64,000 nt of DNA from an uncultured Alphaproteobacteria bacterium (GTDB taxonomy: Bacteria; Pseudomonadota; Alphaproteobacteria; Rhizobiales; Xanthobacteraceae). The translations under genes were made by a program, and so were the position numbers. Within the stretch, counting starts at the first letter, position 1; every line of letters begins with the position of its first letter. The stretch is from contig CAVUSX010000019.1 of NCBI GenBank assembly GCA_963744275.1, positions 99,639 through 163,638 of the forward strand, written 5' to 3'. Below, in pieces: positions 30,757-53,323 of this stretch. Under the pieces are notes generated by a model. That model was not told the DNA's origin and ran no database searches. It saw only the letters and a list, made by a program, of their open reading frames with translations.

Positions 30757-32643
30757 TCAGCCCGCCGCCGGCAGCCCGCGCACCACCAGCCGGTTCAGCC
30801 GCGCCGCGAACGCGGCCGGGTCGCTCGGCACCTCGCCGTCCAGGATCTGGGCCTGATCCAGCAGCAGCGCCGACAAGTCGGCGACGTCATCGGTGCGCCC
30901 CTGCGTTTGCGCTTGCCCGAGCGCCTTGACCAGCGGGTGGCGCATGTTGAGCTCGAGGATGGGCTTGCCGCCGGCGCCGCGGCCCGAGCGCGCGAGCAGG
31001 CGCTCGAGCTCTCGGTCGGGGCCGTGGCCGCCGGCCACCAGGCAGGCGGCGCTGTCGGTGAGGCGCTGCGAGCTGCGCACATCCGCGACCCGCTCTCCGA
31101 GCGCGCTCTTCACCGCCGCGATGACGCTCGCGTCCGTGTCCGAGGCCGGCGCGGTGTCGGCGCTCTCCTCCAGGCGCGGCACCAGATCGAAGTTGACCTC
31201 GCCCTGGCTCAGCGATTTGAGCGGCTTGCCCTCGAAACCGGGCGGTGCCGCGGTCCAGAACGCGTCCACCGGATCGGTCAGCAGCAGGACCTCGATGCCG
31301 CGCGCCCGGGCGGCTTCGAGCTTGGGGTTGGCTTTGACCCGCTCCGGGCTCTCGCCCACCAGATAGTAGATCTCGGTCTGATTGGGCCGCAGGTCCGCGA
31401 CATATTGCTCGAGCGAGCGCGCGGTGCCGGTGGTGGTGGTGAAGCGGGCGAGCCCAATGAGCTGCTCGCGGCGCTCGAAATCCTCGTAGATGCCTTCCTT
31501 GAGCAGGCTACCGAACGCGTCCCAGATCTTCTCGAAGGCGGGCGCGTCCTTTTCGGCCAGCGTCTCGAGCTCGCTCAGGACACGGCTGGTCAGCGCCTTG
31601 CGGATTTGCGCCACCTGCGGATCGTTCTGCAGCATCTCGCGCGAGATGTTGAGCGGCAGGTCCTCGCTGTCGACCACGCCGCGCACGAAGCGCAGATAGG
31701 GCGGCAGCAACTCGGCGTCGTCGGTGATGTAGACGCGGCGCACATAGAGCTTTACGCGGCCCTTGCGGGCGGTATCGAACAGGTCGAACGGCCGGGTCGA
31801 GGGAGCAAACAGCAGCACCGCATAGGAGAGCCGGCCCTCGGCCCGGTAATGCAGCGTCATGGCGGGCTCGTCGAAGGCGCCCGTGATGGAGCGATAGGCT
31901 TGGGCGTAGTCCTCGGGCTTGAGCTCGGCCTTCGGCCGCTGCCAGAGCGCGCTCGCCGTGTTGATCTGCCGCGCCTCGCCCTTTTCGTCGATCAGCTCGA
32001 TCGGAAACTGGATGTGGTCCGAATAGGCTTTGACCACGCGCTCGATCTCGTGCGGCTCGAGAAAGCGCTTGGCGTCCGCCTTCAGGTGCAGGACGATTTG
32101 CGTGCCGCGCGGCATGCCCGCGTCCGGGCTCGGCTCTGCCGGCGCGATCTCGAAGCCTTCGCCGCCGGCCGAGCGCCAGACGAAGGCCTCGCTCGCCCCG
32201 GCACGCCGGCTCGTCACCTCGATGCGGTCCGCCACCATGAAGGCCGAATAGAAGCCGACCCCGAACTTGCCGATCAGCGCGCTTCCCTCCTTGGCCTCGG
32301 CCAGCTGGCTGATGAAGGCACGCGTGCCCGAGCGCGCCACGGTGCCGAGATTGTCGATCAGCTCCTGGCGGTCCATGCCGATGCCGGTGTCGGTGATCGT
32401 GAGGGTGCCGGCCGCGGCGTCCGGCTTGATGCGGATCGCGAGCGCGGCGCCGTCCGCCAGCAATTCCGGCTTGGCGATGGCCTCGTAGCGCAGCTTGTCG
32501 CAGGCGTCGGAGCCGTTGGAGATCAGCTCGCGCAGGAAGACCTCGGTCTCCGAGTAGACCGCGTGGACCATCAGATGCAGGAGCTGGGCGACCTCGGCCT
32601 GAAACGGACGGGTCTGCGCGACATTCTCGTTTTCGCTATCCAT
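30757..32643 (-). CDS. htpG: Molecular chaperone HtpG (Hsp90)
   Basis: 628 aa. N-terminal [41 protein letters not shown] is the Hsp90 ATPase signature region. Confidence 0.95.
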
Positions 32644-35364: not shown

Positions 35365-38300
35365 TCATGCCGGCTGAGCGGGCCCGGAGGGTCGCAATGC
35401 AAGGCCTTTTTCCCGCTCGGCTGCCGGTTCTGCCTCCAGCACGCGCCGTATCTTGGCGATCAGGTCGCTGTCACGGAAGGGCTTGCGGATGATGTGGTCT
35501 TCGTCGGTGTCGCCGAGCGCAGTGGTCTCGGCATAGCCGGTCAGGAAGATCAATGGGAGCTCGGGGCGCCTCGCCCGCACCTGCCGCGCCAGCTCGGCGC
35601 CGTTCATCCCAGGCATGGCGAAATCGATCAGCATCAAGTCGATGTTCGGTTTCTGGTCCAGGAGCTCGAGCGCGTGTCCGCCGCTGCCGGCCTGGAGCAC
35701 CACGTGACCCATCTCCTGGAGCATCGAGGAGGTGATTTCCCGCACCCCATGGTCGTCGTCGACCAGGAGAATCTTGCACGCCCCGTTGAGCGGATCCGCC
35801 GCCGGGGTCGCGGGCTCGCTTGGCTGCGCGCGGGATCGCGCGGTGGCGCGCGGCAGATAGACCCTGACCGTGGTGCCCTCGCCCTCGCGCGTATCGATGC
35901 GCACGCCCCCTCCCGACTGCTGGGCAAATCCGAGCACTTGGCTCAGGCCCAGCCCCGAGCCCTTGCCGACGTCCTTGGTGGTGAAGAACGGCTCGAAGCA
36001 CTTCGCCAGGACTTCGGGCGGCATTCCGGAGCCGGTGTCGCCGACCGCGATCATGACATAGTCGCCCGCCGGCGGCTCTTCCGGCCGCTGCGCAACCCCA
36101 AGCGTCACGTTGGAGGTCTCGACCGTCAGCCGCCCGCCCACCTCCATGGCGTCGCGCGCGTTGATCGCGAGGTTGAGAACCACGAGCTCGATCTGGGTGG
36201 GATCGACCAGCGCCGGCCAAAGCTCCCGACGCAGCACGGTCTCGATCTGGACGCTTCCGCCCATCGTGCTTTCCAGCAAGTCGCGCATGCCCTGGACGGC
36301 TTCATTCAGATCGATCGGCTTGGGCTCCAGGCGTTGACGGCGGGAGAACGCCAGCAGCTGCGATGTCAGCTTGGCGCCACGCTCGGCCGCCTGCCGCATA
36401 TAGGACAGCCGCTGCGCGGTCTTCGGGTTCTCGTCCGTCAGTCCCTTTTCCAGGAACCCGATATTGCCGAGCACGACCGTGAGCAGGTTGTTGAAGTCGT
36501 GCGCCACGCCGGAGGTGAGCTGCCCGACGGCTTCGAGCCTTTGCATCTGGCGGAGCGTCGCCTCGACCCGCTCGCGCTCCTCGATTTGCTCGAGCAGCTG
36601 CCGGTTCGCGGCTGCGAGCTCTCCGGTGCGTTCCTCGACCCGCTTTTCGAGCTCCGCATTGAGCCTCGCCATGGCTTCCTCACGGTCGCGAAGCGTGCGG
36701 TAGAGTCGCGCATTGTCGAGCGCGATCGCGGCTTGCGAAGCAATTCCCAGCACCAGGCGTTCGGACCGGTCGGTGAACACGCCGGGTTGCGGGTGTCCGA
36801 AGAACAGCCCACCCAGGACCTCACCGGAGCGCGAGATCACCGGGGCCGCAAGGTAGCTGCGGACCGGCAGGTGGCCGTCGGGCTGGCCGAAATGCGGGGC
36901 ATTGCCGCCGTAACGCGGGTCCTGGGTGATGTCGTGCGCGCGAACCACCCCTTCGCCCCTGAACGTCGGCGCGAACAGGGCGGTGTTGCGCGGCATCGGG
37001 AATTCGGCAAACGCCTCGCGCTGCGCTCCCGACAGGGCATGCAGCATGTACCTCTCGCCGTGCTCGTCCTGCGCATTGTAGAAAAATGCGCCGAATGCAG
37101 CCCCGCTCAGCTCGGTCGCCGCGTCCGTGACGGTCTGCACGGCCCGGTCCAGGTCGAGCTCGGCCGCGACCGTCGCGCCTATTCGAATTCAGGATCTCGA
37201 GCGTGCGACCTTCCTCGCGCAGGCGTTGCTGCTCGGCGCGCCGGGCCTGCGCGATGGCGAGATTGGTGGACACGCGTGCGAGCAGCTCGCGGGCCGAGAA
37301 CGGCTTGATGAGGTAGTCGTCGGCGCCGGCATCGAGCCCCTCGACCCGCGCTTCCTCGCCGGCCCGGGCGGACAGCAGGATCACCGGGATGGCGTTGAGC
37401 TCGCAATCCGCCCGCACCGCGCGCAAGAGGCCGAAGCCGTCGAGCCGCGGCATCATGACGTCGGACAGGATCAGGTCCGGTATTTGTCGGCGCACGGCGC
37501 TCAGCGCCTCCTCGCCGTCGGTGGCCACCGCCACCTCGTAGCCCCGCTCCCGCAAGAGCCGGCCCACATAAGTCCGCAGATCCGCGTTGTCGTCGACCAG
37601 CAGCACGCGGCCCTTCGTCTCCTCGGGCGGGCGAGTGGTGGGAGCCGAGATGATGTCATGCGCCAGATCGGCATGCAGGCTCGGTTGCGGGTCATGGTCG
37701 AGGTCCGGCAGCCAGCGCATCGCCTCTTCGACGTAGGTCTCCGAATGCGTCATGCCGGTGAGATCGCGTCTTGCTCCTATTCTTTCGGGCGGCAAATGGG
37801 CGGTCCCAAACGGCACCCGCACGATGAATTCCGTCCCGTGCTGCGGCTCGCTGGCGACCCGGATGGTGCCGCCGTGCAGCCGGACGAGCTCCTGGACCAG
37901 CGCCAGCCCGATGCCGGACCCCTCGAAGGAGCGGCTGCGTTGACCCTCGACGCGATGAAACCGTTCGAAGATCCGATCGAGCTGGTCGGGCGGAATGCCC
38001 ACTCCGGTGTCTTTGACGATAAGCTCGACGGCGCCGTCGGGTGTCGATCCGAGCTCGACCCTGATCTCGCCGTCGAAGGTGAACTTGAACGCGTTGGAGA
38101 GAAGATTGAGGACGAGCTTTTCCCACATGTCCCGGTCGACGTAGACGGGCTGGTCGAGGGGGGCGCAGGCGATGACGAACTTCAATCCGGCCTTGTCCAT
38201 GGCCGAGCGGAAGTTGGAGGCGAGCTCGGTCGTGAAAGCCGCCAGATCCGTCGGCTCGTAGCTCGCCTGTACGCGCCCGGCCTCGATGCGCGAGAAGTCC

Positions 38301-39580
38301 AGCAGCATGTTGACGAGCTTCAAGAGCCGCAGCGCGTTGCGATGCGCCACCTCGACGAGACCACGCGGCTGCGGCGTGTCGTTGCGATCCGGTCTCGCCA
38401 GCAGCTCCTCGAGCGGACTCAGCATCAAGGTCAGCGGGGTGCGGAACTCGTGACTGACGTTGGAGAAGAAGGCGGTTTTTGCCCGGTCCAGCTCGGCCAG
38501 CGCCTCGGCGCGCTTGCGCTCATCTTCGTAGGCGGTGGCATTCGCTATACCGGACGCGATCTGCCCCGCCATCAGGGTCAGAAAGCCGCCATAGCTGTCG
38601 TCGAACCCGCGGTACGGGTTGAGGCCGACGACCAGAAATCCCGCGGATTTATCCTGGCCCCGCCGGGCCACCGGAACGATGGCGGCCTGCGCCGGCGGCT
38701 TGTCCCAGGCGCCTGCCGGCAGGCCGGCGAATTCCGGGCGCAAGTCCGTGATGACGATCGGCGAGGTGGCGGCGGCCAATTTGCTCACTGGCCAGGGACA
38801 ATCCGGGCGCCCGATGTCCATGACCGGGGCGGCTGCGACATGGCCGGCGGCGAGCCCGGTCGAGCCGGCAAGGCGGGCCTTCGTCCCATCCGCGTCGAAA
38901 AGGTAGGTGAGGGTGAACGGCAGATCCCGCGGGTTGGCCTCGAGCGAACGGGTCACGGCCGCAAAGACTTCCTCTCGCCGATGGCTTCCGGCCAGCTCCG
39001 AGGAGAGCTCCCGCAACGTCGTCAATCGCCGCTCGCCGATGACGCGTTCGGTTTCCTCGGTGACCACGCAGAGCATGCCGGCCACCCGTCCGGCGTCGTC
39101 CGCGAGCGGGCTGTAGGAGAACGTATGGTAGGTCTCCTCGGTATATCCGCTGCGCTCGAGGAACAAGAGCAGCGCCTGCTCCCAGGTCGCCTCTCCGCTG
39201 GCGAGCACCGCCTCGATGCGCGGGCCGATGTCCTTCCAAATCTCCGCCCAGACCTTCTGGGTCGGCATTCCAAGCGCCCCTGGATGCTTGACCCCGAGGG
39301 TGGGACGGTAGGCGTCGTTGTAGAAAAAGCTGAGCTCTTCGCCCCAGCACATCCACATCGCGTAGCGCGACGTGAGCATGATCCGCACAACCGTCTTGAG
39401 GCTTTGCGGCCAAGCCGCCGGCTCGCCGAGCCAACTCGAGGACCAATCCTTGGCGCGGATGAGCGCGCCCATCTCTCCCCCGCCGGCCAGGAAGGATGGC
39501 AAATCGCCACCCTCCTCGGAACCCACTGCGGCACGCACCTGAGAAACCATTCCCCGTCCTCGAAGACGCCCGAACATCAC
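35365..39580 (-). pseudogene. Tandem hybrid sensor kinase (PAS-GAF-HisKA-HATPase-REC-GAF-HisKA-HATPase-REC), split by a 1-nt frameshift near 37180-37192
   Basis: The upstream ORF (36821-39580) runs through [12 protein letters not shown], the GxGIGLA ATPase and REC ([10 protein letters not shown]...SDVMMP), ending ...[10 protein letters not shown]. The next frame (35365-37140) continues [26 protein letters not shown] (GAF), GVAHDFNNLL (HisKA), HATPase and REC (KILLVDDDHGV...IDFAMP). The real start may be the ATG at 39550. Confidence 0.75.
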
Positions 39581-39702
39581 CTAACCGCGCGGCTGCCATT
39601 TGGTTCCATACCCCGGGGGGCATAGGCGGCGCGGGCCCCGGTATCGACGGCGCCCGCGGCTCGTGTAGGGTCGTTTGCGGACAACTCCTGCAAGGCGAAG
39701 AC

Positions 39703-40089
39703 ATGCCGGCGAGCAAGATATTCCAAGGCCTGCGCGTTCTCCTGGTCGAGGACGAGGTGATGATTTGCCTCTTGCTCGAGGACATGCTGCACGAGTTTGG
39801 CTGCGAGATCGTCGGCCCGGCTTGCGATCTCGAGCGCGCCACCGACCTGGCGCGAAGCGAGGAGGGCATCGATGCCGCCATCCTGGACGTGAATCTCGGC
39901 GGCCAGGTGGTTTTCCCGGTCGCGGAAATCCTCGCCGAGCGAGGGGTGCCGATCTTGTTCTCGACCGGCATGGGTGTGGACGGGCTTCCCGAGGCTTGGC
40001 GCCGGCATGAAACGATTCAGAAGCCGATGAGCATGGACCAGCTCGCCGCCAAGCTCGGCAATGTGTTGCAGGATCGCGGCCGGGGCTGA
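39703..40089 (+). CDS. Single-domain response regulator (CheY-like receiver)
   Basis: LRVLLVEDEVMICLLLEDML...AILDVNLGG...LFSTGMG...QKP. Paralog of 46986-47369. Confidence 0.85.
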   Translation: MPASKIFQGLRVLLVEDEVMICLLLEDMLHEFGCEIVGPACDLERATDLARSEEGIDAAILDVNLGGQVVFPVAEILAERGVPILFSTGMGVDGLPEAWRRHETIQKPMSMDQLAAKLGNVLQDRGRG

Positions 40090-40281
40090 CTCTATCGCGG
40101 CGGCCGGCACCGTGGCGCTCGCCCCTGCGGGCGCCCTTCGTGCCATGCACGATAGCGAACACCCGGACCCCGAGGCTTGCCAAATCAAGCCGGGTTTGCA
40201 ACCAGGAGATTGACCCAATCCTCGACCACCGCGGCGGATCGGCGCTGCGGCGCCGGTCGTCAGACTACGGTGTGAACCTAC

Positions 40282-42171
40282 GTGTCTTCCCCAGGATCAG
40301 CCCCCGCCCCGGCCGGCCGCGAGAGCAGCTCTCTCGCTACCCTGCATTGGGGCTTGGTGTTCACCACGGCGTTGGTGGCGGCGATCGTGGTCGCCACCTT
40401 CTGGCTCAGCGACCGCACCCGGAGCGACGATGAATGGGTGCGCCACACCCTCTCGGTCCGCAACCAGCTCGCCCAGGTCCTGACCCTGGTGCAGGGGGCG
40501 GAAAGCGGACAACGCGGCTATTTGCTCACCGGCGGCGCCACCTATCTCGCCCCCTACGACACCGCCGTACGGCAGATGCCGGAAACGCTCGACCGGGCTT
40601 CAGCTCTCGTCAGCGACAACCCCCAGCAGCAGCAGGCGCTCGGCCAGCTCCGTGCCCTCATCGACGACAAGCTCGCGGAGCTGCGCAGCACGGTCGAGGC
40701 ACGCAAGGCCAACCGTGCCGAGGCTGCGCTCGCGACCGTGAACTCCGACGAAGGCCGCCGTACCATGGACGAGATCAGGGCGCTGCTCGCGACCATGGAG
40801 GCGGAGGAGAACCGGCTGCTGGCGGACCGGCAGGCGAGCGCCGTCACCTCCAGCACCATGCTGCGCTGGGGGGTGGGTGCGAGCTTCGCCCTGGTCTGCG
40901 TCCTGGGCGCGCTGATCGGTTACTTCACCCGCCACTCGTTCGCACAGGTCGCGGCGGCGCGCGACCGGCTCATGGCCGCCAATGCGGAGCTGGTCGAGCA
41001 GGTGCGCCGGCGCGAGCAGGTCGAGAGCCAGCTCCGGCAGTCGCAAAAGATGGAGGCGATCGGCCAATTGTCCGGCGGTATCGCCCACGACTTCAACAAC
41101 ATGCTCGGCGTCATCATGGGCGCGCTCGACCTCATGCAACGGCGTGTCCGCGTGGGCGATTTCGGCATCGAACGCTTCATGCAGGCGGCGATCAAGGCGA
41201 GCGAGCGCGCCGCCGGCCTGACCCACCGCCTGCTCGCCTTCGCGCGTCAGCAGCCGCTCGCCCCGGAGCCGGTCAATGCCAACAAGCTGATCGGCAACAT
41301 GTCGGATCTCTTGCGCTCCACCTTGGGCGAGCATATCCGGATCGAGACGGTGTCGGCGGCCGGGTTATGGCTGACCAAAGCGGATGCCCATCAGCTCGAG
41401 AGCGCGATTCTCAACGTCGCGATCAACGCCCGCGACGCGATGCCGGACGGCGGCAATTTGACGATCGAAACCGGCAACGTATTTCTCGACGACGCCTATT
41501 GTCGTCAAAACGCCGAGGCCGAGCCCGGGCAATTCGTCATGCTCGCCGTCAGCGACACCGGCACCGGCATGGCGCCGGAGGTCGCTGCGCGGGTGTTCGA
41601 TCCGTTCTTCACCACCAAGCCGGCGGGCCGGGGAACCGGGCTCGGCTTGAGCCAGGTCTACGGCTTCATCAAGCAGTCGCGCGGGCATATCAAGGTGTAC
41701 TCGGAACCGGGTGCCGGCACTTCGGTGAAGATCTACCTCCCGCGCCTGATCGGCGAAACGGAAAAGCTGGAGCGCGCGCGGCCGCCGGCGATACAGAAGG
41801 GCTATGCGGGCGAGCTCGTCCTGGTGGTCGAGGATGATCAGCTGATGCGGCAAATGAGCGTCGATGCGCTGACCGACCTCGGCTACGGCGTCATCGACAG
41901 CGAGAGCGCGATGGAGGCGTTGCGCATTCTCGATGGCCGGCCGGACGTCAAGTTGCTGTTCACCGACGTCGTGATGCCGGAGATGAACGGGAAAAAGCTC
42001 GCGGACGAGGCCCTGCGCCGCCGGCCCGATCTCAAGATCCTGTTCACCACCGGCTACACCCCGAACGCCGTGGTGCACGGCGGCGTGCTCGATCCGGGCG
42101 TGAATTTCCTGGGCAAGCCGTTCACCTTGGAGCAACTCGCCGCCAAGGTGCGGGCGACCTTGGACGGATGA
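40282..42171 (+). CDS. CHASE3-domain hybrid sensor histidine kinase/response regulator
   Basis: GTG start. TM, then a CHASE3-like periplasmic domain (VRHTLSVRNQLAQVLTLVQGAESGQRGYLLTG...), TM, HisKA (GGIAHDFNNMLGVI), HATPase and a C-terminal REC (LVLVVEDDQLM...TDVVMPEMNG). Confidence 0.85.
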   Translation: MSSPGSAPAPAGRESSSLATLHWGLVFTTALVAAIVVATFWLSDRTRSDDEWVRHTLSVRNQLAQVLTLVQGAESGQRGYLLTGGATYLAPYDTAVRQMPETLDRASALVSDNPQQQQALGQLRALIDDKLAELRSTVEARKANRAEAALATVNSDEGRRTMDEIRALLATMEAEENRLLADRQASAVTSSTMLRWGVGASFALVCVLGALIGYFTRHSFAQVAAARDRLMAANAELVEQVRRREQVESQLRQSQKMEAIGQLSGGIAHDFNNMLGVIMGALDLMQRRVRVGDFGIERFMQAAIKASERAAGLTHRLLAFARQQPLAPEPVNANKLIGNMSDLLRSTLGEHIRIETVSAAGLWLTKADAHQLESAILNVAINARDAMPDGGNLTIETGNVFLDDAYCRQNAEAEPGQFVMLAVSDTGTGMAPEVAARVFDPFFTTKPAGRGTGLGLSQVYGFIKQSRGHIKVYSEPGAGTSVKIYLPRLIGETEKLERARPPAIQKGYAGELVLVVEDDQLMRQMSVDALTDLGYGVIDSESAMEALRILDGRPDVKLLFTDVVMPEMNGKKLADEALRRRPDLKILFTTGYTPNAVVHGGVLDPGVNFLGKPFTLEQLAAKVRATLDG

Positions 42172-42271: not shown

Positions 42272-43171
42272 TCAAGCCACCATCGTGCGCTCATCGGTCG
42301 CCGCGCTGCTCTCGTCGGTTTCGTGCGTCGTCACGCTGAACGACTTGAGCACGTTTTTCCCGAATGTCGTGCTGATGGCGACATCGGCGGCGTCGCGGCC
42401 GCGCGCGATCAGCACACGACCGATCCGCGGCACGTTGTGGCGGGCATCGAAGGTGAACCAGCGCCCGCCCACGAAGGCCTCGAACCAGGCGCTGAAATCC
42501 ATGGGCGCCGGATCGGGCGGCACGCCGATGTCGCCCAGATAGCCGGTGCAGTACCGCGCCGGAATATTGAGGCAGCGGCAGAAGGTGACCGCCAGATGCG
42601 TGAAGTCGCGGCAGACGCCGCGCCGCTCCGCGAAGGCCCGGGCCGCCGTCCTGGTGGCATCCGCATGCGGGTAGCCGAATTCGATGTGCCGGTGCACGAA
42701 GTCGCAGATCGCCTGCACCCTGCGCCAGCCTGGAGCCGCGCCACCGAACAGCTCCCAGGCCTTGTCCATCATGAGGTCGGTCTCGCAATAACGGCTGGCC
42801 AGGAGGTACACCAGCGTGTCGTGCGGCAGGCTGGCGACCGCATGCTCTTGCGCCGCGAGATCGATCGGGTCCGGTCGGCCGTTGTCGGCGATGACCGTGC
42901 TGCCCGTCACCCGCAGCTCGCCGGCCGGCGCCAGCACGCGCACGCATTTGTTCCCGAAGCCGTCGACATAGGGCGTAATGGAACGTGGCGGCGAAAAATG
43001 CAGCCTGTCAGGCTTGAGCAAGTCGGCCGCGCGCGAGGGATGGACGTTGAGCATCAAAATCATCGGCGTCGCATCGGCGCACGCGTAGGTCAGGTCGAAG
43101 CCCAGCTGGATTTTCACGATTTTCGCCCACTGTTGGAACGGGTATTCGTAACTAAGCCCGATCGCAACCAT
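42272..43171 (-). CDS. Transglutaminase-like cysteine protease superfamily protein
   Basis: Core GVCRDFTHLAVTFCRCLNIPARYCTGYL...FSAWFEAFVGGRWFTFDARHN (Cys-His-Asp type). The ATG at 43171 is preceded by GAGGGA. An alternative GTG is at 43117. Confidence 0.75.
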   Translation of the reverse strand: MVAIGLSYEYPFQQWAKIVKIQLGFDLTYACADATPMILMLNVHPSRAADLLKPDRLHFSPPRSITPYVDGFGNKCVRVLAPAGELRVTGSTVIADNGRPDPIDLAAQEHAVASLPHDTLVYLLASRYCETDLMMDKAWELFGGAAPGWRRVQAICDFVHRHIEFGYPHADATRTAARAFAERRGVCRDFTHLAVTFCRCLNIPARYCTGYLGDIGVPPDPAPMDFSAWFEAFVGGRWFTFDARHNVPRIGRVLIARGRDAADVAISTTFGKNVLKSFSVTTHETDESSAATDERTMVA

Positions 43172-43737
43172 CAGTTCCCTCAAGGCAGCAGAATAAGACA
43201 GAGGCCTGGGTCTCGATCCGGGCTGCAGACCGATCCAATGGCCCGGTCCAATGGGCCTGGACGGAATCCCAACGCCCACCGCGATGAGCGATAGGTCCGC
43301 CTACGGCCTCTGGCGGGGCCACGCCCACCTACAGCGTGGGCACTTCATGTTTATGTATAGACCAGAGGAAACAGGAGCCGGAGCCCAGAATAATTGCAGG
43401 GAGTGCGATCCAAATAAGCATTTTGCGGACCTCGCGTCTCCACCCTCACGCAGCGGCAAACGTCGGAGCGCCAGTCTGGGTTCCATGCGGCCACCCGGGG
43501 AAGCCGTCCGTGCCGCCAGGCGCCGCGCCGAGATGGCAGCGGGCTCTCAAGCGCAACTGGTCGCCGCCGCTGAACGGGACCGCCTCCCACGCTACCGATC
43601 GACCCCTTCCATCGGGCTGGAACTTTCCGCGAGGGTCCTGCGTTGGGCGCCTTGTCTGCGTGGGTCCGCCTGCGCGGGCGGCTTTCTCGTCCGCGGGCGT
43701 ATCTCTCTCATTAAACGCGACATCCCGGGGGTCTGCG

Positions 43738-45234
43738 ATGGATGCCATGACGCAACTTCTGCCCAGGGCGGCGACCGGAGTCGCCGGCCTCGACGGCATT
43801 CTGGGTGGCGGCATGGCCCGCAACCGTCTTCACTTGCTGGAAGGCAGCCCCGGCACCGGCAAGACCACGATCGCGCTGCAATTCCTGCTGGCAGGCGCGG
43901 CGGCGGGCGAGGTCGGGATTTACGTCAGCTTGGCGGAAACCGAACGCGAGCTGCGCGAAGGCGCCGCCTCGCACGGCTGGACGATCCCGGAAGCGATCGA
44001 GATATTCGAGCTCGTACCGCCCGAAAGCGTGCTCGATCCGGATCAGCACCAGAGCCTGCTTTATTCCTCCGATCTGGAGCTCGGCGAGACCATCCAGCGC
44101 ATCTTCGAAGCCATCCAAAGGCTCAAGCCCAAGCGCGTCGTGATCGACAGCTTGTCCGAGATTCGTCTGCTGGCCCAGAGCTCGTTGCGCTACCGCCGCC
44201 AGATCTTGGCGCTCAAGCACTACTTCGCCCAGCACAACTCCACCGTGATCCTGCTCGACGATCTCACCACCGAGACCACCGATCGGGCGGTCCACAGCAT
44301 CGCTCACAGCGTCCTTCATCTCGACCAGCTGGCGCCGATTTATGGCGGCGAGCGCCGCCGCCTGCGCATCATCAAGTGCCGCGGCCAGAGCTTCGGCGCC
44401 GGTTATCACGACTTCACGATCACGCAAGGCGGCGTGCAGGTGTTTCCGCGCCTGGTGGCGGCCGAGCATCGCAAGGGATATCCCGACCAGGCTCTGTCGA
44501 GCGGAATTCCGCAGCTCGATCAGTTGCTGGGCGGCGGGGTCGCGGCGGGGTCCAGTACGCTGGTGATCGGCCCGGCCGGCACCGGCAAGTCCGTGCTGAT
44601 CCTGCACTGCATCGCCGCCGCCGTCGCCCGCGGCGAGCGCGCCGCGCTGTTCGCCTTCGACGAGGAGCTCGGCCTGCTGTTTGCCCGCGCCAAGGGTCTG
44701 GGCATCGATCTGGCGGCGATGTGCGAGGCCAACAAGCTCTTTGTCGAGCAGGTGGACGCTGCCGAAGTGTCGCCCGGCGAGTTCTCCCATCGGGTACGCC
44801 GCTGCGTCGACCGCGAAGGCATCCGTATCGTGGCGATCGACAGCCTCAACGGCTACCAGGCCGCCATGCCGGAGGAGCAGTTTCTGCTCCTGCACCTGCA
44901 TGAGCTGCTGCAGTACCTGAACCGGCAGGGCGCCGCGACGTTTCTGGCGGTCGCGCAGCACGGCATGATCGGCGACATGAAGCAGACGATCGACGTCACT
45001 TATTTGGCGGACACCGTGATCCTGCTGCGTTATTTCGAGGCGCTGGGGCGGGTGCGGCGGGCGATCTCGGCCATCAAGAAGCGCACCGGATCGCATGAGG
45101 ATACGATCCGCGAATTTCAGATCGGCAGCGGCGGACTTGCCATCGGACCGCCGCTGCGCGCCTTCCAGGGCGTGCTGCGCGGAGTGCCGAGCTATGTGGG
45201 GAAGGCCGAACCCCTCATGGATCAAGCCCCATGA
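43738..45234 (+). CDS. KaiC-like double RecA-domain ATPase (circadian clock protein KaiC homolog)
   Basis: Two RecA/KaiC modules, each with a Walker A (GSPGTGKTT; GPAGTGKSV). The C-terminal ...DTVILLRYFEALGRVRRAISAIKKRTGSHEDTIREFQI parallels KaiC ...DTIILLQYVEIRGEMSRAINVFKMRGSWHDKAIREF. Confidence 0.85.
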   Translation: MDAMTQLLPRAATGVAGLDGILGGGMARNRLHLLEGSPGTGKTTIALQFLLAGAAAGEVGIYVSLAETERELREGAASHGWTIPEAIEIFELVPPESVLDPDQHQSLLYSSDLELGETIQRIFEAIQRLKPKRVVIDSLSEIRLLAQSSLRYRRQILALKHYFAQHNSTVILLDDLTTETTDRAVHSIAHSVLHLDQLAPIYGGERRRLRIIKCRGQSFGAGYHDFTITQGGVQVFPRLVAAEHRKGYPDQALSSGIPQLDQLLGGGVAAGSSTLVIGPAGTGKSVLILHCIAAAVARGERAALFAFDEELGLLFARAKGLGIDLAAMCEANKLFVEQVDAAEVSPGEFSHRVRRCVDREGIRIVAIDSLNGYQAAMPEEQFLLLHLHELLQYLNRQGAATFLAVAQHGMIGDMKQTIDVTYLADTVILLRYFEALGRVRRAISAIKKRTGSHEDTIREFQIGSGGLAIGPPLRAFQGVLRGVPSYVGKAEPLMDQAP

Positions 45235-46932
45235 TAGAGATCCCGCCCCGGTCCGAACGCACGCTCCTGCTCGCGCCGCGCGGCCGCGATGCGGTGGTGG
45301 CGAAGGGAATATTGCGCGACGCCAAGATCCATTCCGAGATTTGCCTCGATCTCGAGGAGCTGGTGCAGGAGCTGCGTCGTGGCGCCGACGTCGCGGTCCT
45401 CACCGAGGAAGCCGCCCGCAGTCCCGACGCGAAGGCGCTCATCGATTGGATTTCGCGCCAGCCGCCCTGGTCGGATTTTCCGTTCGTCCTGCTCACCAAG
45501 CACGGCGGCGGCCTCGAACGAAATCCGGCGGCCGCGCGCCTGACCCAGGAAATGGGCAACGTCACGTTCCTGGAGCGGCCGTTTCATCCGACCACCCTGG
45601 TGAGCGTCGTGCAGACCGGATTGCGCGGTCGGCGTCGCCAATACGAGTGCCGGCGCCTCAACGAGGAGCTCGAATTCGCGGGTGGAGGAGCGCACGCAGG
45701 AGCTCGCGACCGCCAATCGGCAGCTGCTCGGCCAGATCGCCGAGCGCGAGCGGGTGGAGTCCACGCTGCGCCAGATGCAACGGCTGGAGGCGGTCGGGCA
45801 GCTCACCTCGGGCGTCGCGCACGACTTCAACAACCTTCTGACCGTGGTGCTGGGAAACATCGGCTTTCTGGAGAAGGAGCTCGCCGCCAAGGGCATCAAC
45901 GGCAAATCCAGCCAGCGGCTGGGTTACATGCGATCGGCCGCCGAGCGCGGCGCCAAATTGACCGATCAGCTGCTGTCGTTCTCGCGCCGTCAACGCCTGG
46001 AGCCGCAATCGCTCGATCTCAACGAGACCGTCATCGGCATGCGTGATCTTCTGCAGAGCACGATGGGAGGCAGCATCCACATCGAGACCAAGCATCATTG
46101 CGGCCTGTGGCCGGCGCTGGTCGACCCGACCCAGCTCGAGTTGGCCGTCCTCAACCTCGCCATCAATGCGCGCGACGCGATGCAGGTCGGCGGCACCTTG
46201 CAGGTGAAAACCGGGAACGCCAAGCTCGGGCCCGCGCAACGTCCGGAAGATCCTCCGGCCGGCGAATACGTGGCGGTGAGCGTATCCGACACCGGCACCG
46301 GGATGACGGACGATATCCGCGCCAAGGTCTTCGAGCCGTTCTTCACCACCAAGGAGGTCGGCAAGGGCTCGGGCCTGGGCTTGAGCCAGGTGCTCGGCTT
46401 CGCCAAGCAATCGGGCGGGGGAGTGTGTATCGAGTCGCGCCTGGGCGCAGGCACGTCGGTGCACATCTATCTGCCGCGCTCCGAGGCGACACGCGCCAGG
46501 CGGGATCCCCCGCCCATGCGGGTCGCCGGCGCCGAGGTCTATCGCGGCCTGACGATCCTGCTGATCGACGATGACAATGCGGTCCGCGAGGTCACCCGCG
46601 CCACCCTGCATGAGCTCGGTTACAAGGTCCTGGAGGCGGGCAGCGGCGCGGCGGCGCTCGATCTGATCGAGCGCGAGCCCAAGATCGATCTGATGATCGC
46701 CGATTTCGCGATGCCCGGCATGAACGGGGCGGAGGTCGCCCGCCTCGCATGCGCCAAGCGGCCGACACTGCCGGTCTTGTTCGTCACCGGATTTGCCGAC
46801 CGCACCGCGTTGGCCGGAATTGGCGAAGCCCAGATCATCAGCAAGCCCTTCATCGACGATGAGCTCGCCCGCAAGGTCCGGACGGCGCTGGCGGAGAGCA
46901 ATTCGAGGAATGTGATCCGGCTGCGGCGCTGA
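45231..46932 (+). pseudogene. Pseudo-receiver - HisKA - HATPase - REC hybrid histidine kinase, split by a 1-nt frameshift near 45672-45682
   Basis: The ATG overlaps the kaiC-like stop (ATGA). The N-terminal receiver-like fold lacks the acidic pocket. ...RRLNEELE is followed in the next frame by RVEERTQELATANRQL...GVAHDFNNLLTVV, HATPase and a canonical REC (ILLIDDDNAV...ADFAMPGMNG). Confidence 0.8.
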
Positions 46933-46985
46933 CCGAGGCCGCGGAGCGTCGGAGTAGAGGTGTCTTGCAACAACGGGGGCTGTGC

Positions 46986-47369
46986 GTGCCTGACGATATC
47001 CAAGGACTTCGCGTCCTCGTGGTCGAGGACGATTCGTTGATATGCCTCCTGCTCGAGGACATGCTGCTGGAGCTCGGTTGCCAGGTCGTCGGGACCGCGG
47101 CCGATGTCAAGCGCGCGATCGACCTGGCGCAGCGCGAGGAAAGTGTCGATGTCGCCATCCTGGACGTGAACCTGGGCGGCCGGCAGGTGTTTCCGGTAGC
47201 CGAGATCCTGGCCGAGCGAGGGGTGCCGTTCTTGTTCGCGACCGGCATGGGGGCGGACGGGCTGCCCGCCGGCTGGCTCGGCCATTGCTCCGTGCAGAAA
47301 CCGATGACCGTCGAGGGCCTCGGCAACGCGCTTCGCCGCGCCATTCGGGAGCAGGCCAAATCCGGCTAG
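46986..47369 (+). CDS. Single-domain response regulator (CheY-like receiver), paralog of 39703-40089
   Basis: LRVLVVEDDSLICLLLEDML...AILDVNLGG...LFATGMG...QKP. I chose the GTG at 46986 by alignment with the paralog N-terminus (MPASKIFQGLRVL vs VPDDIQGLRVL). The ORF also opens at TTG 46965. Confidence 0.8.
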   Translation: MPDDIQGLRVLVVEDDSLICLLLEDMLLELGCQVVGTAADVKRAIDLAQREESVDVAILDVNLGGRQVFPVAEILAERGVPFLFATGMGADGLPAGWLGHCSVQKPMTVEGLGNALRRAIREQAKSG

Positions 47370-47520
47370 CGGCTCGCGCGGAGATTTTTCTCTTTCAGCC
47401 CTCATGGTGAGGGCGCGGGCAACGCCCGCGCGTCTCGAACCATGGCCGCGCCATGGACAATCGACCCTGAAAGGATCAGCCAACGCCGGCGGAACCGTGA
47501 TAACCAGCGCAAGGCACCAT

Positions 47521-48629
47521 CTATTGGCCGATTGGAGGCAGGCCGCCCTTGTAGAGGAAGCGCTGCACGCGCTGGCCCTGCACCTCGGCGGTGTAGATGT
47601 TGCCTTTGCTGTCGATGCCGATGTTGTGGAGATTTTCGAACTCACCCGGGCCGCGCCCCACGCGCCCGAAGCTGCCGACCACCTGCCCGTCGCTGCGGCG
47701 GAGCACATGGATCTGGCCGTTGGGGTCGTCCGAGGTGAACCAATAGGTCTGCCCCTTATCCGGCCAGAACACGGTCGAGCCGGTGACGCCCGGCGCGGTC
47801 AATTCACGCAAGACCGGGATTTCGCGGACAAAGGTGCCGTTCTTCTGGAAGATCTGAATGCGGTTGTTGAAACGGTCGGAAACCACCACTTCCCGTCGTT
47901 GGTTATCCTGATGCCGTGCACCGGATTGCCGAACTGCTGCGGCAGGACGTTCGGATCATAGGTGATCTTCTCGTCCGTCGGCGGCTTGCCATAGGCGCCC
48001 CAGGCGCGCTTGAACACGCCCGTGTCGGCGTCGAACACGACGACGCGATGATTGAAGTAGCCGTCGGCCACATAGAGCTCGTTGGTCTGCGGATCGACCA
48101 CCATGTCGGCGGCGCGGCCGACGCGCGTCTGATCGAGACTGTTGGTCTGCTTGGCGGACCTGCCGATCGACATGAGAAACTTGCCGTCGTTGGTGAACTT
48201 CAGGACCATGCCGTCGTCGTCGCCGTTGCCGGCGAGCCAGACATTGCCTTTGTAGTCGATGAACATGCCGTGCTCGTTTTGCGGCCAGTCATAGCCGTGG
48301 GCGGTCTTCGGTCCGCCCCACGCCTTGACCACGTCGCCCGCCTGGTTGAGCTCGACGACGGAGGGCGCGGTGTAGCAGCAGATCGACTTGTCGCCACGTT
48401 CGGCGCGCTTGTCGCGATCATTCACCGTACGCGGTCGCTGGCTGATCCAGACGTTGTCGTCCTTGTCGAGGAAAATGCCGCCGATCTGCCCGAAGATCCA
48501 ATTGTTCGGCAGCGGCTTGGGCCAGCTCGCATCAATCTCGAATTTCGGCGCCGGCTGCGCGACCGCAGCCGTCACCATGAATGTCAATGCGGCGGCGCTC
48601 GCGAGCACAATCGTCCGGGCAAGCTTCAT
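47521..48629 (-). pseudogene. Secreted NHL-repeat six-bladed beta-propeller protein, 1-nt frameshift near 47887-47890
   Basis: RBS AGGAGGAATA before the ATG at 48629, plus a signal peptide. The upstream ORF ends ...HGIRITNDGK. The next frame continues VVVSDRFNNRIQIF...GPGEFENLHNIGIDSKGNIYTAEV (NHL repeats). Confidence 0.7.
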
Positions 48630-48742
48630 GTATTCCTCCTTCGTGCGGCGCCGCGTTCGTCCGGCCGGCCGCTTCATCGACCAATACAGGAGAGTAGAAG
48701 TCCGGCTCCGTCATCCCGGGAAACAGCTCGAATTCCTGGGCT

Positions 48743-51379: not shown

Positions 51380-51521
51380 CGGCAGCATCGATCGGGCCCG
51401 CCCGCGATCTCCAACTTCCCAGTAAGTCACTGATTTCTTTAACGACGCTCGTGTTCGGCTGTTTTGCCGCCATGCGTCACCGGATGGAGTCGGCGTGTGC
51501 GTGAGCACCGCCGATGACGAC

Positions 51522-53323
51522 ATGACCGCTTCAATCAACAAGCGACCCGCTGCGATACGCGTGGTGATTCCGTTTGTGCTTCGCCAATGGCGCAATCAAC
51601 CGGCCCGTGCGCTCACGGTCGCCGGCGGCCTGTTGGGGGCGACGGTCGCGGACCTGTTCATGCCGATGTTCTCGGGCTATCTGGTCGACGCGCTGACGCT
51701 CGGCACGGCCGACCCGGCCGCCCGCCACGCCGCGTGGTCGGCCTTCTGCGCCATCGTTGCGCTCGGCTTGCTGTCGATCATCCTGCGCTTCGCCGGATTG
51801 CGGGCGATCGTGCCGTTCACGCTGCGGATCATGTCCGACGTGGCGCGCGACGCCTTCATGCGGGTGCAGCGCTTCTCGACCGACTGGCACGCCAACAGCT
51901 TTGCCGGCTCCACCGTGCGCAAGATCACGCGCGGCATGTGGGCGCTCGACCTCCTCAACGATACCATCCTGATGGCGCTGTTGCCGTCGCTGGTGGTGCT
52001 GTTGGGATCGGTGATCCTGCTCGGGCTGCACTGGGCCTCGCTCGGTCTCGTGGTCGCGCTCGGCGCCCTGATCTATGTATCGCTGACGGTCGTGTTCTCG
52101 ACGCGCTATATCGCGCCGGCGGCGCGCATCTCCAACGCCTGGGACACCAGGGTCGGCGGCACGCTGGCCGATGCCCTGACCTGCAACGCCGTGGTGAAAT
52201 CGTCCGGCGCGGAAGTGCGCGAGGACGCGCGGCTGGTGCGCGTGCTGAGCCGCTGGCGCGGGCGCGTACGGCGGACCTGGCTGCGCTACAACTACACCTC
52301 CACGGCGCAGCTCACGGTGCTGCTGTGCCTGCGCGCCTCGGTGATCGGCGGCTCGTTGCTGCTGTGGATGGCGGGCCGCGCTTCGCCGGGCGGTGTTACT
52401 TATGTGCTGAGCAGCTACTACATCATCCACGCCTATCTGCGTGATGTCGGCATGCACATCAACAATCTGCAGCGCTCGGTGAACGACATGGAAGAGCTTG
52501 TCGCGATCCATGACGAGGCAATCGGCATCGCCGATGCCGCCGATGCATGTCCGATCGACATCCAAGGCGGCCGCATCGTGTTCGAGGACGTGACGTTCCA
52601 TTACGGCGGCCATCGGGTGCCGCTGTACGAGGGTCTGTCAGTGGAGATCGGCGCCGGCGAACGCGTCGGTCTGGTTGGCCGCTCGGGCTCCGGCAAGACC
52701 ACCTTCGTGAAGCTGGTGCAGCGGCTTTACGATGTTCCGGCGGGCGGGTCCTGATCGACGACCAGGATATCGCGAAAGCGACCCAGCACTCGCTGCGCAG
52801 CCAGATTGCGATCGTGCAGCAGGACCCGATCCTGTTTCACCGTTCGCTCGCTGCCAACATCGCGTATGGCCGGCCGGGCGCCGGCATGGCTGCGATCGAG
52901 CAGGCCGCGCGGCTTGCCAATGCGCACGAGTTCATCCTACGCCTGCCCATGGGTTACGGCACGCTGGTCGGTGAACGCGGCGTCAAACTGTCGGGTGGCG
53001 AGCGGCAACGCGTCGCGCTGGCACGCGCGTTCCTCGCCGACGCGCCGGTCCTGATCCTGGACGAGGCAACCTCGAGCCTCGATTCCGAATCGGAGGCGTT
53101 GATTCAGCAGGCGATGGTGCGGCTGATGAAGGGGCGCACCTCGATCGTGATAGCGCACCGGCTGTCGACGGTGCGCAGTCTCGATCGGATTCTGGTGTTC
53201 GATCGCGGCGAAATCGTCGAGCAGGGTACCCACGCTGCGCTCACGGCGCGAACCGGCGGCATCTATCGCGGCCTGTTCGAGCGTCAGGTGACGGAGTTCG
53301 ACGGCCTCTCGGCGGCCGAATAG
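51522..53323 (+). pseudogene. MsbA-like ABC exporter (fused permease/ATPase), 1-nt frameshift near 52739-52748
   Basis: Six-helix TMD, then Walker [10 protein letters not shown]...RLYDVPAG. The next frame continues RVLIDDQDI..., [18 protein letters not shown] and a H-loop (IAHRLS). Confidence 0.8.

Follow-up and report, generated by a model that had tools for sequence, protein, structure and literature searches.

A KaiC-like ATPase and a pseudo-receiver histidine kinase in a soil Xanthobacteraceae genome: probable member of a KaiB-independent module

Homologs of KaiC that occur without KaiA and KaiB are far commoner than true clocks, and their function is largely obscure. How might the state of such an ATPase reach an output pathway without KaiB? 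We address this question for one locus in a 64,000-nucleotide stretch of DNA, hereafter the window, from an uncultured alphaproteobacterium of the family Xanthobacteraceae (GenBank assembly GCA_963744275.1, contig CAVUSX010000019.1, forward-strand positions 99,639 to 163,638). The window has a GC content of ~66%, and its nearest relatives are metagenome-assembled genomes of soil Xanthobacteraceae/Hyphomicrobiales. Between positions 43738 and 47369 lie genes for a KaiC-like ATPase, a hybrid histidine kinase (HK) with a characteristic N-terminal module (the N-module), and a response regulator (RR) that has a single domain. An earlier note, made from the sequence, had suggested that the N-module is a pseudo-receiver and that it reads the KaiC-like protein directly, without KaiB.

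We judge it fairly probable that the locus is a soil Xanthobacteraceae member of a KaiB-independent “kaiC-like + Nt-kinase” module, in which the kinase docks on the ATPase, the signal passes through a phosphorelay, expression depends on a σEcfG-type promoter, and the split seen in the kinase gene is an assembly indel. This is no new kind of system, as both its architecture and the hypothesis attached to it are already published, with partial experimental support (De Luca et al., 2011; Terrettaz, 2022). To this published module, the σEcfG link and the predicted interface between ATPase and pseudo-receiver described below would be modest, testable additions.

The ATPase and the N-module of its partner kinase

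The first gene of the locus (43738..45234, + strand) encodes a double-RecA ATPase of 498 amino acids with two PF06745 KaiC domains (E 1.2e-69) and, as the earlier note had described, two Walker A loops, GSPGTGKTT (residues 36-44) and GPAGTGKSV (residues 278-286). An exact-sequence look-up for the protein returned no match; its homologs number in the thousands, and most are exactly 498 amino acids long. The closest matches in the PDB are KaiC structures (E 1e-64 to 1e-43), and identity to Synechococcus elongatus KaiC is ~29%. Scores against the KaiC equivalog models NF006799 (279 vs 408 bits) and TIGR02655 (193 vs 546 bits) fall below the cut-offs, and orthologs carry the NCBI label “ATPase domain-containing protein”.

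For comparison we fetched 80 loci, from which subsets of 76 (kinase domains and RR), 74 (KaiC residues), and 73 (promoter) were analyzed. Residue conservation in the 74 syntenic orthologs was read against an S. elongatus KaiC reference sequence whose numbering was confirmed at landmark residues. The equivalents of the Walker lysines (K52, K294) and of the arginine fingers (R226, R459) are invariant, and the position of T426 is variable. For the catalytic glutamates and Ser/Thr phosphosites, which the earlier note had singled out for checking, the outcome is mixed. Equivalents of E78 and E319 are kept throughout, while E77 is lost and E318 is replaced by Asp in 71 of the 74; the S431/T432 pair is also replaced, by a Thr-Tyr pair that is itself invariant (74/74; T421/Y422 in the window). 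The alignment with S. elongatus KaiC shows no KaiA-binding tail, the C-terminus being ~20 residues short.

The protein thus shares with cyanobacterial KaiC a double-domain KaiC-fold ATPase with Walker A and B motifs, arginine fingers and a phosphosite in the second (CII) half, and differs from it in the absent KaiA-binding tail. Given also the 29% identity, the sub-cut-off NCBIfam scores, the change of E77 to Ala, and the invariant Thr-Tyr at S431/T432, it is by sequence a KaiC-like protein and not a true clock KaiC. Its identity as a hexameric autokinase is probable.

The longest run with ≥95% conservation across the 74 orthologs, longer than either Walker motif, is QSLLYSSDLELGE (residues 105-117, window 44050-44088), which corresponds to the B-loop of the first (CI) half. 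In cyanobacterial KaiC, the CI B-loop is the docking site of KaiB and SasA. The region in the present family is three residues longer than in cyanobacterial KaiC and different in sequence, and its near-invariance is possibly a new observation. It is plausibly a candidate docking site for the N-module of the kinase. Conservation in the ATPase thus peaks on the surface that corresponds to the KaiB/SasA docking loop, and this offers a concrete interface for testing.

The stop codon of the kaiC-like gene and the start codon of the kinase gene share the sequence ATGA at 45231-45234, an overlap that the earlier note had reported correctly. The window uses ATG as this start, whereas close relatives use GTG (contigs X16 and X4 have A>G at 45231; the orthologs L001 and L002 start with V), and the 4-nt overlap is retained with either codon. 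The first part of the kinase (45231..45677, + strand) is the N-module, 149 amino acids predicted to form a (βα)5 domain that leads into a long α5/coiled-coil helix. Residues 1-149 matched no family in Pfam or NCBIfam, PF00072 included. Within the family, their conservation is strong, the motifs being LAPxGRDA, QPPWSDFPF.LLT, GGGLERNP, and FLERPFHPTTL, and the invariant residues are concentrated in the β4-α4 and β5-α5 loops.

A confident AlphaFold2 model of the N-module, built from a 51-sequence alignment (pLDDT 88.7, pTM 0.84), has the topology β1α1β2α2β3α3β4α4β5α5, with the long α5 running on into a coiled coil. The top 50 Foldseek matches in the PDB are all receiver domains, including HupR, CpxR, PhoB, and NtrX, with TMt values of 0.75-0.84. 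At the active-site positions, the acidic pair is replaced by A15-P16, the phospho-Asp by T58, and the Lys by R116; the Thr is retained as T89 (equivalent to T87), as is the Pro that follows the β5 residue. The earlier note had read a receiver-like N-terminus without the acidic pair, the phospho-Asp, and the Lys from the motifs LLLAPRGRD (12-20), VAVLTEE (54-60), and ERPF (115-118); these motifs are present, and the predicted fold agrees with that reading. On the model, the N-module is a degenerate CheY-like receiver, and we call it a pseudo-receiver because the (βα)5 fold is present but the catalytic set and the PF00072 match are lost. Two other identities were considered and rejected: a SasA/KaiB-like thioredoxin fold, since the model is (βα)5 and matches receivers only, and a PAS domain, since the predicted fold is that of a receiver. 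The partner of the KaiC-like gene is therefore predicted to carry a degenerate receiver fold rather than a KaiB/SasA-like or PAS domain.

The second part of the kinase (45679..46932, + strand, frame +1) consists of a coiled coil followed by HisKA (E 1.4e-8, with the H-box AHDFNN), HATPase_c (E 1.7e-17), and an internal REC domain (E 2.8e-20) that keeps the full canonical set DDD / D / T / K. Domain searches in this frame thus recover the HisKA, HATPase, and canonical REC that had been described after the N-terminal module.

Conservation of the pair and the question of KaiB

In a scan that took a single genome for each species, at least 577 genomes proved to carry the N-module. The majority belong to Alphaproteobacteria (Xanthobacteraceae/Bradyrhizobium, Sphingomonadales, Caulobacterales, Methylobacterium, and Microvirga), and a few to Gammaproteobacteria, Gemmatimonas, and Terriglobales. 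When the family is clustered at 50% identity, 1,163 clusters match with E ≤ 1e-30 and some 4,000 do so with E ≤ 1e-10, although the weaker matches may take in generic kinase helices because the profile reached into the coiled coil. In family proteins, the N-module is almost always at the extreme N-terminus. All 80 loci have a KaiC-like gene (63-83% identity) directly 5′ of the N-module on the same strand, with a few bases to tens of bases between the end of one and the start of the other, so the adjacency of ATPase and kinase on which the earlier note relied is conserved in related genomes. The kinase output that follows is HisKA-HATPase-REC in 63-66 of 76 loci, with an extra PAS domain in ~17, HWE_HK in 7, and GAF in 1. 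With the N-module constant and the outputs variable, it is the N-module, not the output, that travels with KaiC.

Plasmid or chromid records account for 269 matches to the ATPase and 208 to the N-module, and the adjacent pair is carried by Agrobacterium fabrum pAt and Sinorhizobium meliloti pSymA. On pSymA, adjacency is kept at 42% identity for KaiC and 29% for the N-module. Both replicons (loci L084 and L085) are conjugative megaplasmids, on which the module is flanked by genes of a stress type, for a cold-shock protein, a J-domain protein, and the CsbD family; the pSymA kinase is short, at 347 amino acids, and is followed by a 129-amino-acid RR. With the module on megaplasmids of these tractable models, the ideas developed here are directly testable. 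Fragments of close relatives are also present in a soil metatranscriptome, with contigs that cross the kaiC-kinase and kinase-RR junctions.

The arrangement corresponds to the “second kaiC-context” of De Luca et al. (2011, PMC3164672), in which a kaiC gene (SY/TY/SF) is followed by a specific kinase, “Nt_HK”, as in Rta_04330/Rta_04340 of Ramlibacter tataouinensis. The N-module of Nt_HK was described as weakly receiver-like, and the authors suggested that it is the part through which KaiC is contacted in a rudimentary hourglass; reverse-transcription PCR showed co-transcription of kaiC and Nt_HK, and no kaiB was reported for genomes with this context (PMC3164672). Here, too, a kaiC-like gene stands directly before an HK with a family-specific N-module, and the phosphosite pair is T421-Y422; no kaiB was found in the 64-kb window or within 10 kb at the 80 loci. 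There are differences, in that R. tataouinensis is a betaproteobacterium and the source of the window an alphaproteobacterium, and the kinase in the window is a hybrid with an internal REC domain, followed by a FATGUY-like RR. De Luca et al. preferred to see the N-module as SasA/KaiB-like; the fold predicted here is clearly CheY-like. By analogy of shared attributes (receiver-like, N-terminal, and after a TY-type kaiC), the N-module is likely homologous to RtaNt of Rta_04340.

Experimental data come from Pseudomonas, where KaiC-like proteins have been divided into three groups; group I is of the TY/SY type and has its nearest relatives in Rhizobiales (Terrettaz, 2022, bioRxiv 10.1101/2022.01.26.477890). 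An HK and a single-domain RR are conserved beside the Pseudomonas KaiC-like genes, KaiC binds the HK, and kinase residues 1-138 suffice for this interaction (Terrettaz, 2022). KaiC phosphorylation accumulates in stationary phase and is not circadian, and mutants are stress-sensitive (Terrettaz, 2022). The window locus has the TY pair of group I together with HK and single-domain RR neighbors. With P. protegens CHA0 (group I) and P. putida PP_3834/PP_3835 (group III) it shares a (hybrid) HK and single-domain RR as neighbors and, within the 64 kb of the window, a setting without kaiB, and it differs in that the EPS sortase or CsrA neighbor of the Pseudomonas loci was not seen among the genes examined here. 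A further KaiB-less kaiC that adjoins a regulator gene in Alphaproteobacteria is kaiC2-kaiR2 of Methylorubrum extorquens AM1; in the account given in PMC8069551 (Iguchi et al., 2018), phosphorylation is required for function, and the phenotypes concern stress (UV, temperature) and plant colonization. According to that same account, KaiC2 is phosphorylated at one Ser only, S426, and does not have TY; it probably belongs to another KaiC-like group.

Could the KaiC-like protein instead belong to a KaiB-dependent hourglass like the KaiBC systems of Rhodopseudomonas palustris and Rhodobacter, with kaiB elsewhere in the genome? The visible part of the genome is 64 kb, and kaiBC clusters exist in related Alphaproteobacteria (kaiC1-kaiB2-kaiB1 in M. 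extorquens, and in R. palustris). Within the 64-kb window, the claim of the earlier note that no kaiB- or kaiA-like coding sequence is present agrees with tblastn searches using KaiB and KaiA probes (best E 0.8). The 10 kb on either side of the 80 orthologous loci contain no kaiB, KaiB was found in 0 of 1255 Pseudomonas genomes carrying the same TY/SY group of KaiC (Terrettaz, 2022), and no kaiB was reported for genomes with the second kaiC-context (De Luca et al., 2011). The B-loop region, where KaiB docks in cyanobacterial KaiC, is altered in length and sequence, and the Rhodobacter KaiBC-type KaiC structure is a more distant match (E 1e-43) than cyanobacterial KaiC (E 1e-53). Against this background, a hidden dependence on KaiB appears very unlikely.

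A different objection concerns the partnership itself. The N-module could be a working atypical phospho-acceptor or a small-ligand sensor that regulates the kinase on its own, the KaiC-like protein could serve another process, perhaps as a repair ATPase of the RecA/RadA kind, and adjacency could mean co-regulation only. The retained T89 and Pro, the acidic residue that is almost always found at position 59, and weak matches of the KaiC-like protein to RadA, RecA, and DnaB models are all in keeping with this idea. However, the N-module has lost the Mg-binding acidic pair and the phospho-Asp and has no Pfam REC match, and the scores to the RadA and RecA models are far under their cut-offs. Translational coupling (ATGA or a small overlap) together with adjacency in 80 of 80 loci across phyla argues for physical partnership, and a direct KaiC-kinase interaction was demonstrated in Pseudomonas (Terrettaz, 2022). 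We regard co-regulation of two unconnected proteins as a marginal explanation.

Direct reading of KaiC by the pseudo-receiver without KaiB, as the earlier note had it, thus gains strong support from the adjacency, from the absence of kaiB within 10 kb at the 80 loci, and from the constancy of the N-module, as well as from the binding seen in Pseudomonas; the idea is not new, having been proposed by De Luca et al. (2011). The parallel drawn with cyanobacterial kinases holds in part. In SasA and CikA, as proposed here, the state of KaiC is read by an HK through a non-catalytic N-terminal domain, and the fold of a pseudo-receiver is common to CikA and the N-module. The domain employed by SasA is, however, thioredoxin-like (KaiB-like), and in CikA it is KaiB rather than KaiC that the pseudo-receiver binds, so that the CikA analogy is a loose one.

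The interrupted frame of the kinase gene

The earlier note had described the hybrid kinase as one open reading frame (ORF), and this is not what the window contains. The kinase is spread over two overlapping ORFs in different frames, 45231..46046 and 45682..46932, of which the first is native for its first ~149 amino acids and then continues as a 122-amino-acid out-of-frame tail. The break lies between the pseudo-receiver and the HisKA part, at 45675..45678 (+ strand), where the window reads GAATTCGCGG and relatives read GAATCGCGG or GAATTCCGG, so that the window has one surplus base. The intact orthologs L001 and L002 (566 and 578 amino acids) are continuous across this point (...LNEELE[S/F]RV.ERT...), and all complete orthologs of the kinase are single ORFs. 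The exact strain was not found in public sequencing runs (best 38% of words). Five public runs of close relatives yielded contigs (X1-X4, X16), all of which are shorter by one base at 45675 or 45678; identity reaches 99% in one contig, and one of the runs is a metatranscriptome. Both halves of the kinase are 87-90% identical to L001 (87% for the second part) and have no further lesions.

Two more genes are frame-broken nearby. A gene for an NHL/six-bladed β-propeller (47521-48677, - strand) is split in two frames near 47,895, where ...GIRITNDGK is followed in the other frame by VVVSDRFNNRIQIF..., in the manner of a single-base indel and of the same sort as the break in the kinase. In a gene for an ABC transporter with membrane and ATPase parts (51495-53323, + strand), a break near 52,745 places a stop 40 residues into the ABC_tran domain, the rest of which (…RVLIDDQDI…LSGGERQR…) follows in another frame after ~52,745. 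These last two breaks were seen in a frame plot of GC content at third codon positions combined with the translations, and they bring the single-frame breaks to three in 7 kb: in the kinase, the propeller, and the transporter. Each of them, when read through, gives a normal protein, which speaks for assembly indels rather than biology. Because the five relatives lack the base and two more genes are broken within 7 kb, an indel in the assembly is the likeliest cause of the split kinase. The three breaks also suggest that the assembly of the window is indel-prone, of the long-read type.

If the insertion were real, the kinase would be a genuine pseudogene or split gene, leaving a stand-alone pseudo-receiver and a kinase that is either dead or re-initiated at GTG 45682, and the module would be decaying or rewired. 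The surplus base is in the window sequence itself, a GAGGAG ~13 nt upstream of GTG 45682 could permit re-initiation, and database entries for the module include many short, truncated ORFs. These points are set against the five runs without the surplus base, the uniformly single-ORF kinases among complete orthologs, the otherwise lesion-free halves, and the breaks in unrelated genes near 47,895 and 52,745, which are typical of long-read assembly indels. A genuine split is improbable on this evidence.

Stress-response context and a proposed mechanism

In the window, a predicted σEcfG-type promoter motif, GGAAC-N17-CGTT, lies at 43619..43644 (+ strand), 119 nt 5′ of the ATG of the kaiC-like gene. 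L001 retains both boxes, GGAAC and CGTT, at -117, and the sequence between them has diverged. Across 73 loci, a scan for GGAAC-N15-18-[CG]GTT within 450 nt upstream of the kaiC-like gene found the motif in 28; as controls, the reverse strand gave 2 of 73 and shuffled sequences 1.3 of 73. Strict matches in the 64-kb window number 3, against ~1 expected. The σEcfG-type general-stress promoter upstream of kaiC-like genes is possibly a new observation. Our literature search found no joint treatment of KaiC with EcfG or PhyR, and the one review that has both covers them in separate sections. Its occurrence before many alphaproteobacterial copies suggests where the module joins physiology. Such a promoter link is alphaproteobacterial and is not a feature of the Pseudomonas groups.

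Some further signals were seen in the same region. A second strict GGAAC-N17-CGTT, in the same intergenic spacer, at 43459-43484 (- strand) faces the divergent transglutaminase-like gene (42272-43279, - strand), and from these motifs the intergenic spacer may contain divergent general-stress promoters. A 13-bp GC-rich hairpin (43652-43681, + strand) follows the predicted σEcfG promoter and precedes the start of the kaiC-like gene, so that it would fall in the 5′ leader. A promoter scan of 43100-47800 found no σ70-like promoter, and terminator-like matches in the region showed no excess over chance.

The single-domain RR that the earlier note had placed downstream of the kinase is real, with 134 amino acids encoded at 46965..47369 (+ strand; REC E 1.4e-9), starting 33 nt past the kinase end at 46932. 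It has a canonical Asp (ILDVNL), a Lys (VQKPM), and the motif PFLFATGMG at residues 88-96, which matches PFxFATG of the FATGUY consensus PFxFATG[G/Y] and has M in place of the final G or Y. The closest NCBIfam models are PRK13435 and PhyR-type receivers, both under cut-off. RRs of the FATGUY class (SdrG, MrrA, Sma0114) serve as phosphorylation hubs in the general stress response (GSR) of Alphaproteobacteria. A paralogous FATGUY-like single-domain RR with the motif PILFSTGMG is encoded at 39703-40089, so that both RRs in the window have the PF/ILF(A/S)TG motifs of this class. To judge from its motifs, a FATGUY-type RR beside the module is possibly another new observation. Two counts over 76 loci gave 1 and 2 with a stand-alone receiver beside the operon. 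The window shares the gene with L001, its closest relative, and there are independent occurrences in S. meliloti and Pseudomonas. An RR as core third component of the module was rejected on these counts; the RR is a lineage-specific neighbor.

From these observations, we propose the following sequence of events. Gene anatomy, the modeled fold, residue conservation, synteny, and motif enrichment were observed in this work, and KaiC-kinase binding, stationary-phase phosphorylation, and stress phenotypes in Pseudomonas; the docking site, the direction of regulation, the GSR link, and any behavior as a timer are inferred. The KaiC-like protein would form a RecA-type hexamer with ATP bound in both halves, and its second half would slowly autophosphorylate on the invariant Thr421, and possibly on Tyr422. 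The pseudo-receiver of the hybrid kinase, which is probably not phosphorylatable in the usual way, would dock on this hexamer, plausibly at the B-loop equivalent (residues 105-117). The HisKA dimer would sense docking by way of the long α5/coiled-coil helix, and the balance between kinase and phosphatase would shift. Phosphate would then pass from His to the internal REC domain and on to further partners, in this lineage including the adjacent FATGUY-like RR. In many Alphaproteobacteria, including the source of the window, the operon is probably driven by a σEcfG-type promoter. With such a promoter, the module would be a slowly changing, stress-induced gauge of how long stress or stationary phase has lasted, possibly a timer but not a circadian clock.

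Several observations weigh against this proposal. The first catalytic Glu of CI (E77) is Ser in 51 and Ala in 23 of the 74 orthologs, with Ala in the window, and because of this complete replacement, the CI half may be a poor ATPase. Residue E59, nearly invariant and acidic, comes after the lost phospho-Asp position, so that some phospho-chemistry on the N-module is possible. As sequenced, the kinase gene of the window is interrupted. The KaiC-binding kinase fragment of P. putida comes from group III and was called a PAS domain (bioRxiv 10.1101/2022.01.26.477890). As to expression, the σEcfG motif is missing from the 450 nt upstream in 45 of 73 loci, including those of A. fabrum and S. meliloti. 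The GSR regulon supplements of Bradyrhizobium diazoefficiens, Sphingomonas melonis, Rhizobium etli, and M. extorquens do not mention a KaiC-like gene, so the σEcfG link stays a prediction. A stronger version of the proposal is correspondingly speculative. In it, the module of Alphaproteobacteria would be a σEcfG-induced, KaiB-free “stress hourglass” in which the GSR turns on the operon, the slowly changing phosphorylation state of T421/Y422 is read by the pseudo-receiver at the CI B-loop, phosphate runs via FATGUY RRs back to the PhyR/NepR/σEcfG partner switch, and the duration or memory of the stress response is set. We consider this extended version doubtful.

The surroundings of the locus include other signaling genes. 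Genes scanned around the locus are the transglutaminase-like gene, the NHL propeller, and an NMT1-like gene. Just upstream lies a signaling island (35365-42171) with hybrid kinases of the architectures GAF-HisKA-HATPase-REC (35365-37140, - strand) and PAS-GAF-HisKA-HATPase-REC (36821-39580, - strand), the paralogous RR, and a CHASE3 hybrid kinase (40282-42171). The ORF at 36821-39580 extends ~150 amino acids beyond its own REC domain into the next gene, and a frame problem near 37.1 kb is possible. Farther upstream, an HtpG/Hsp90 gene is present both in the window (30757-32643, - strand) and in L001 (1032-2933), which indicates that local synteny reaches past the operon.

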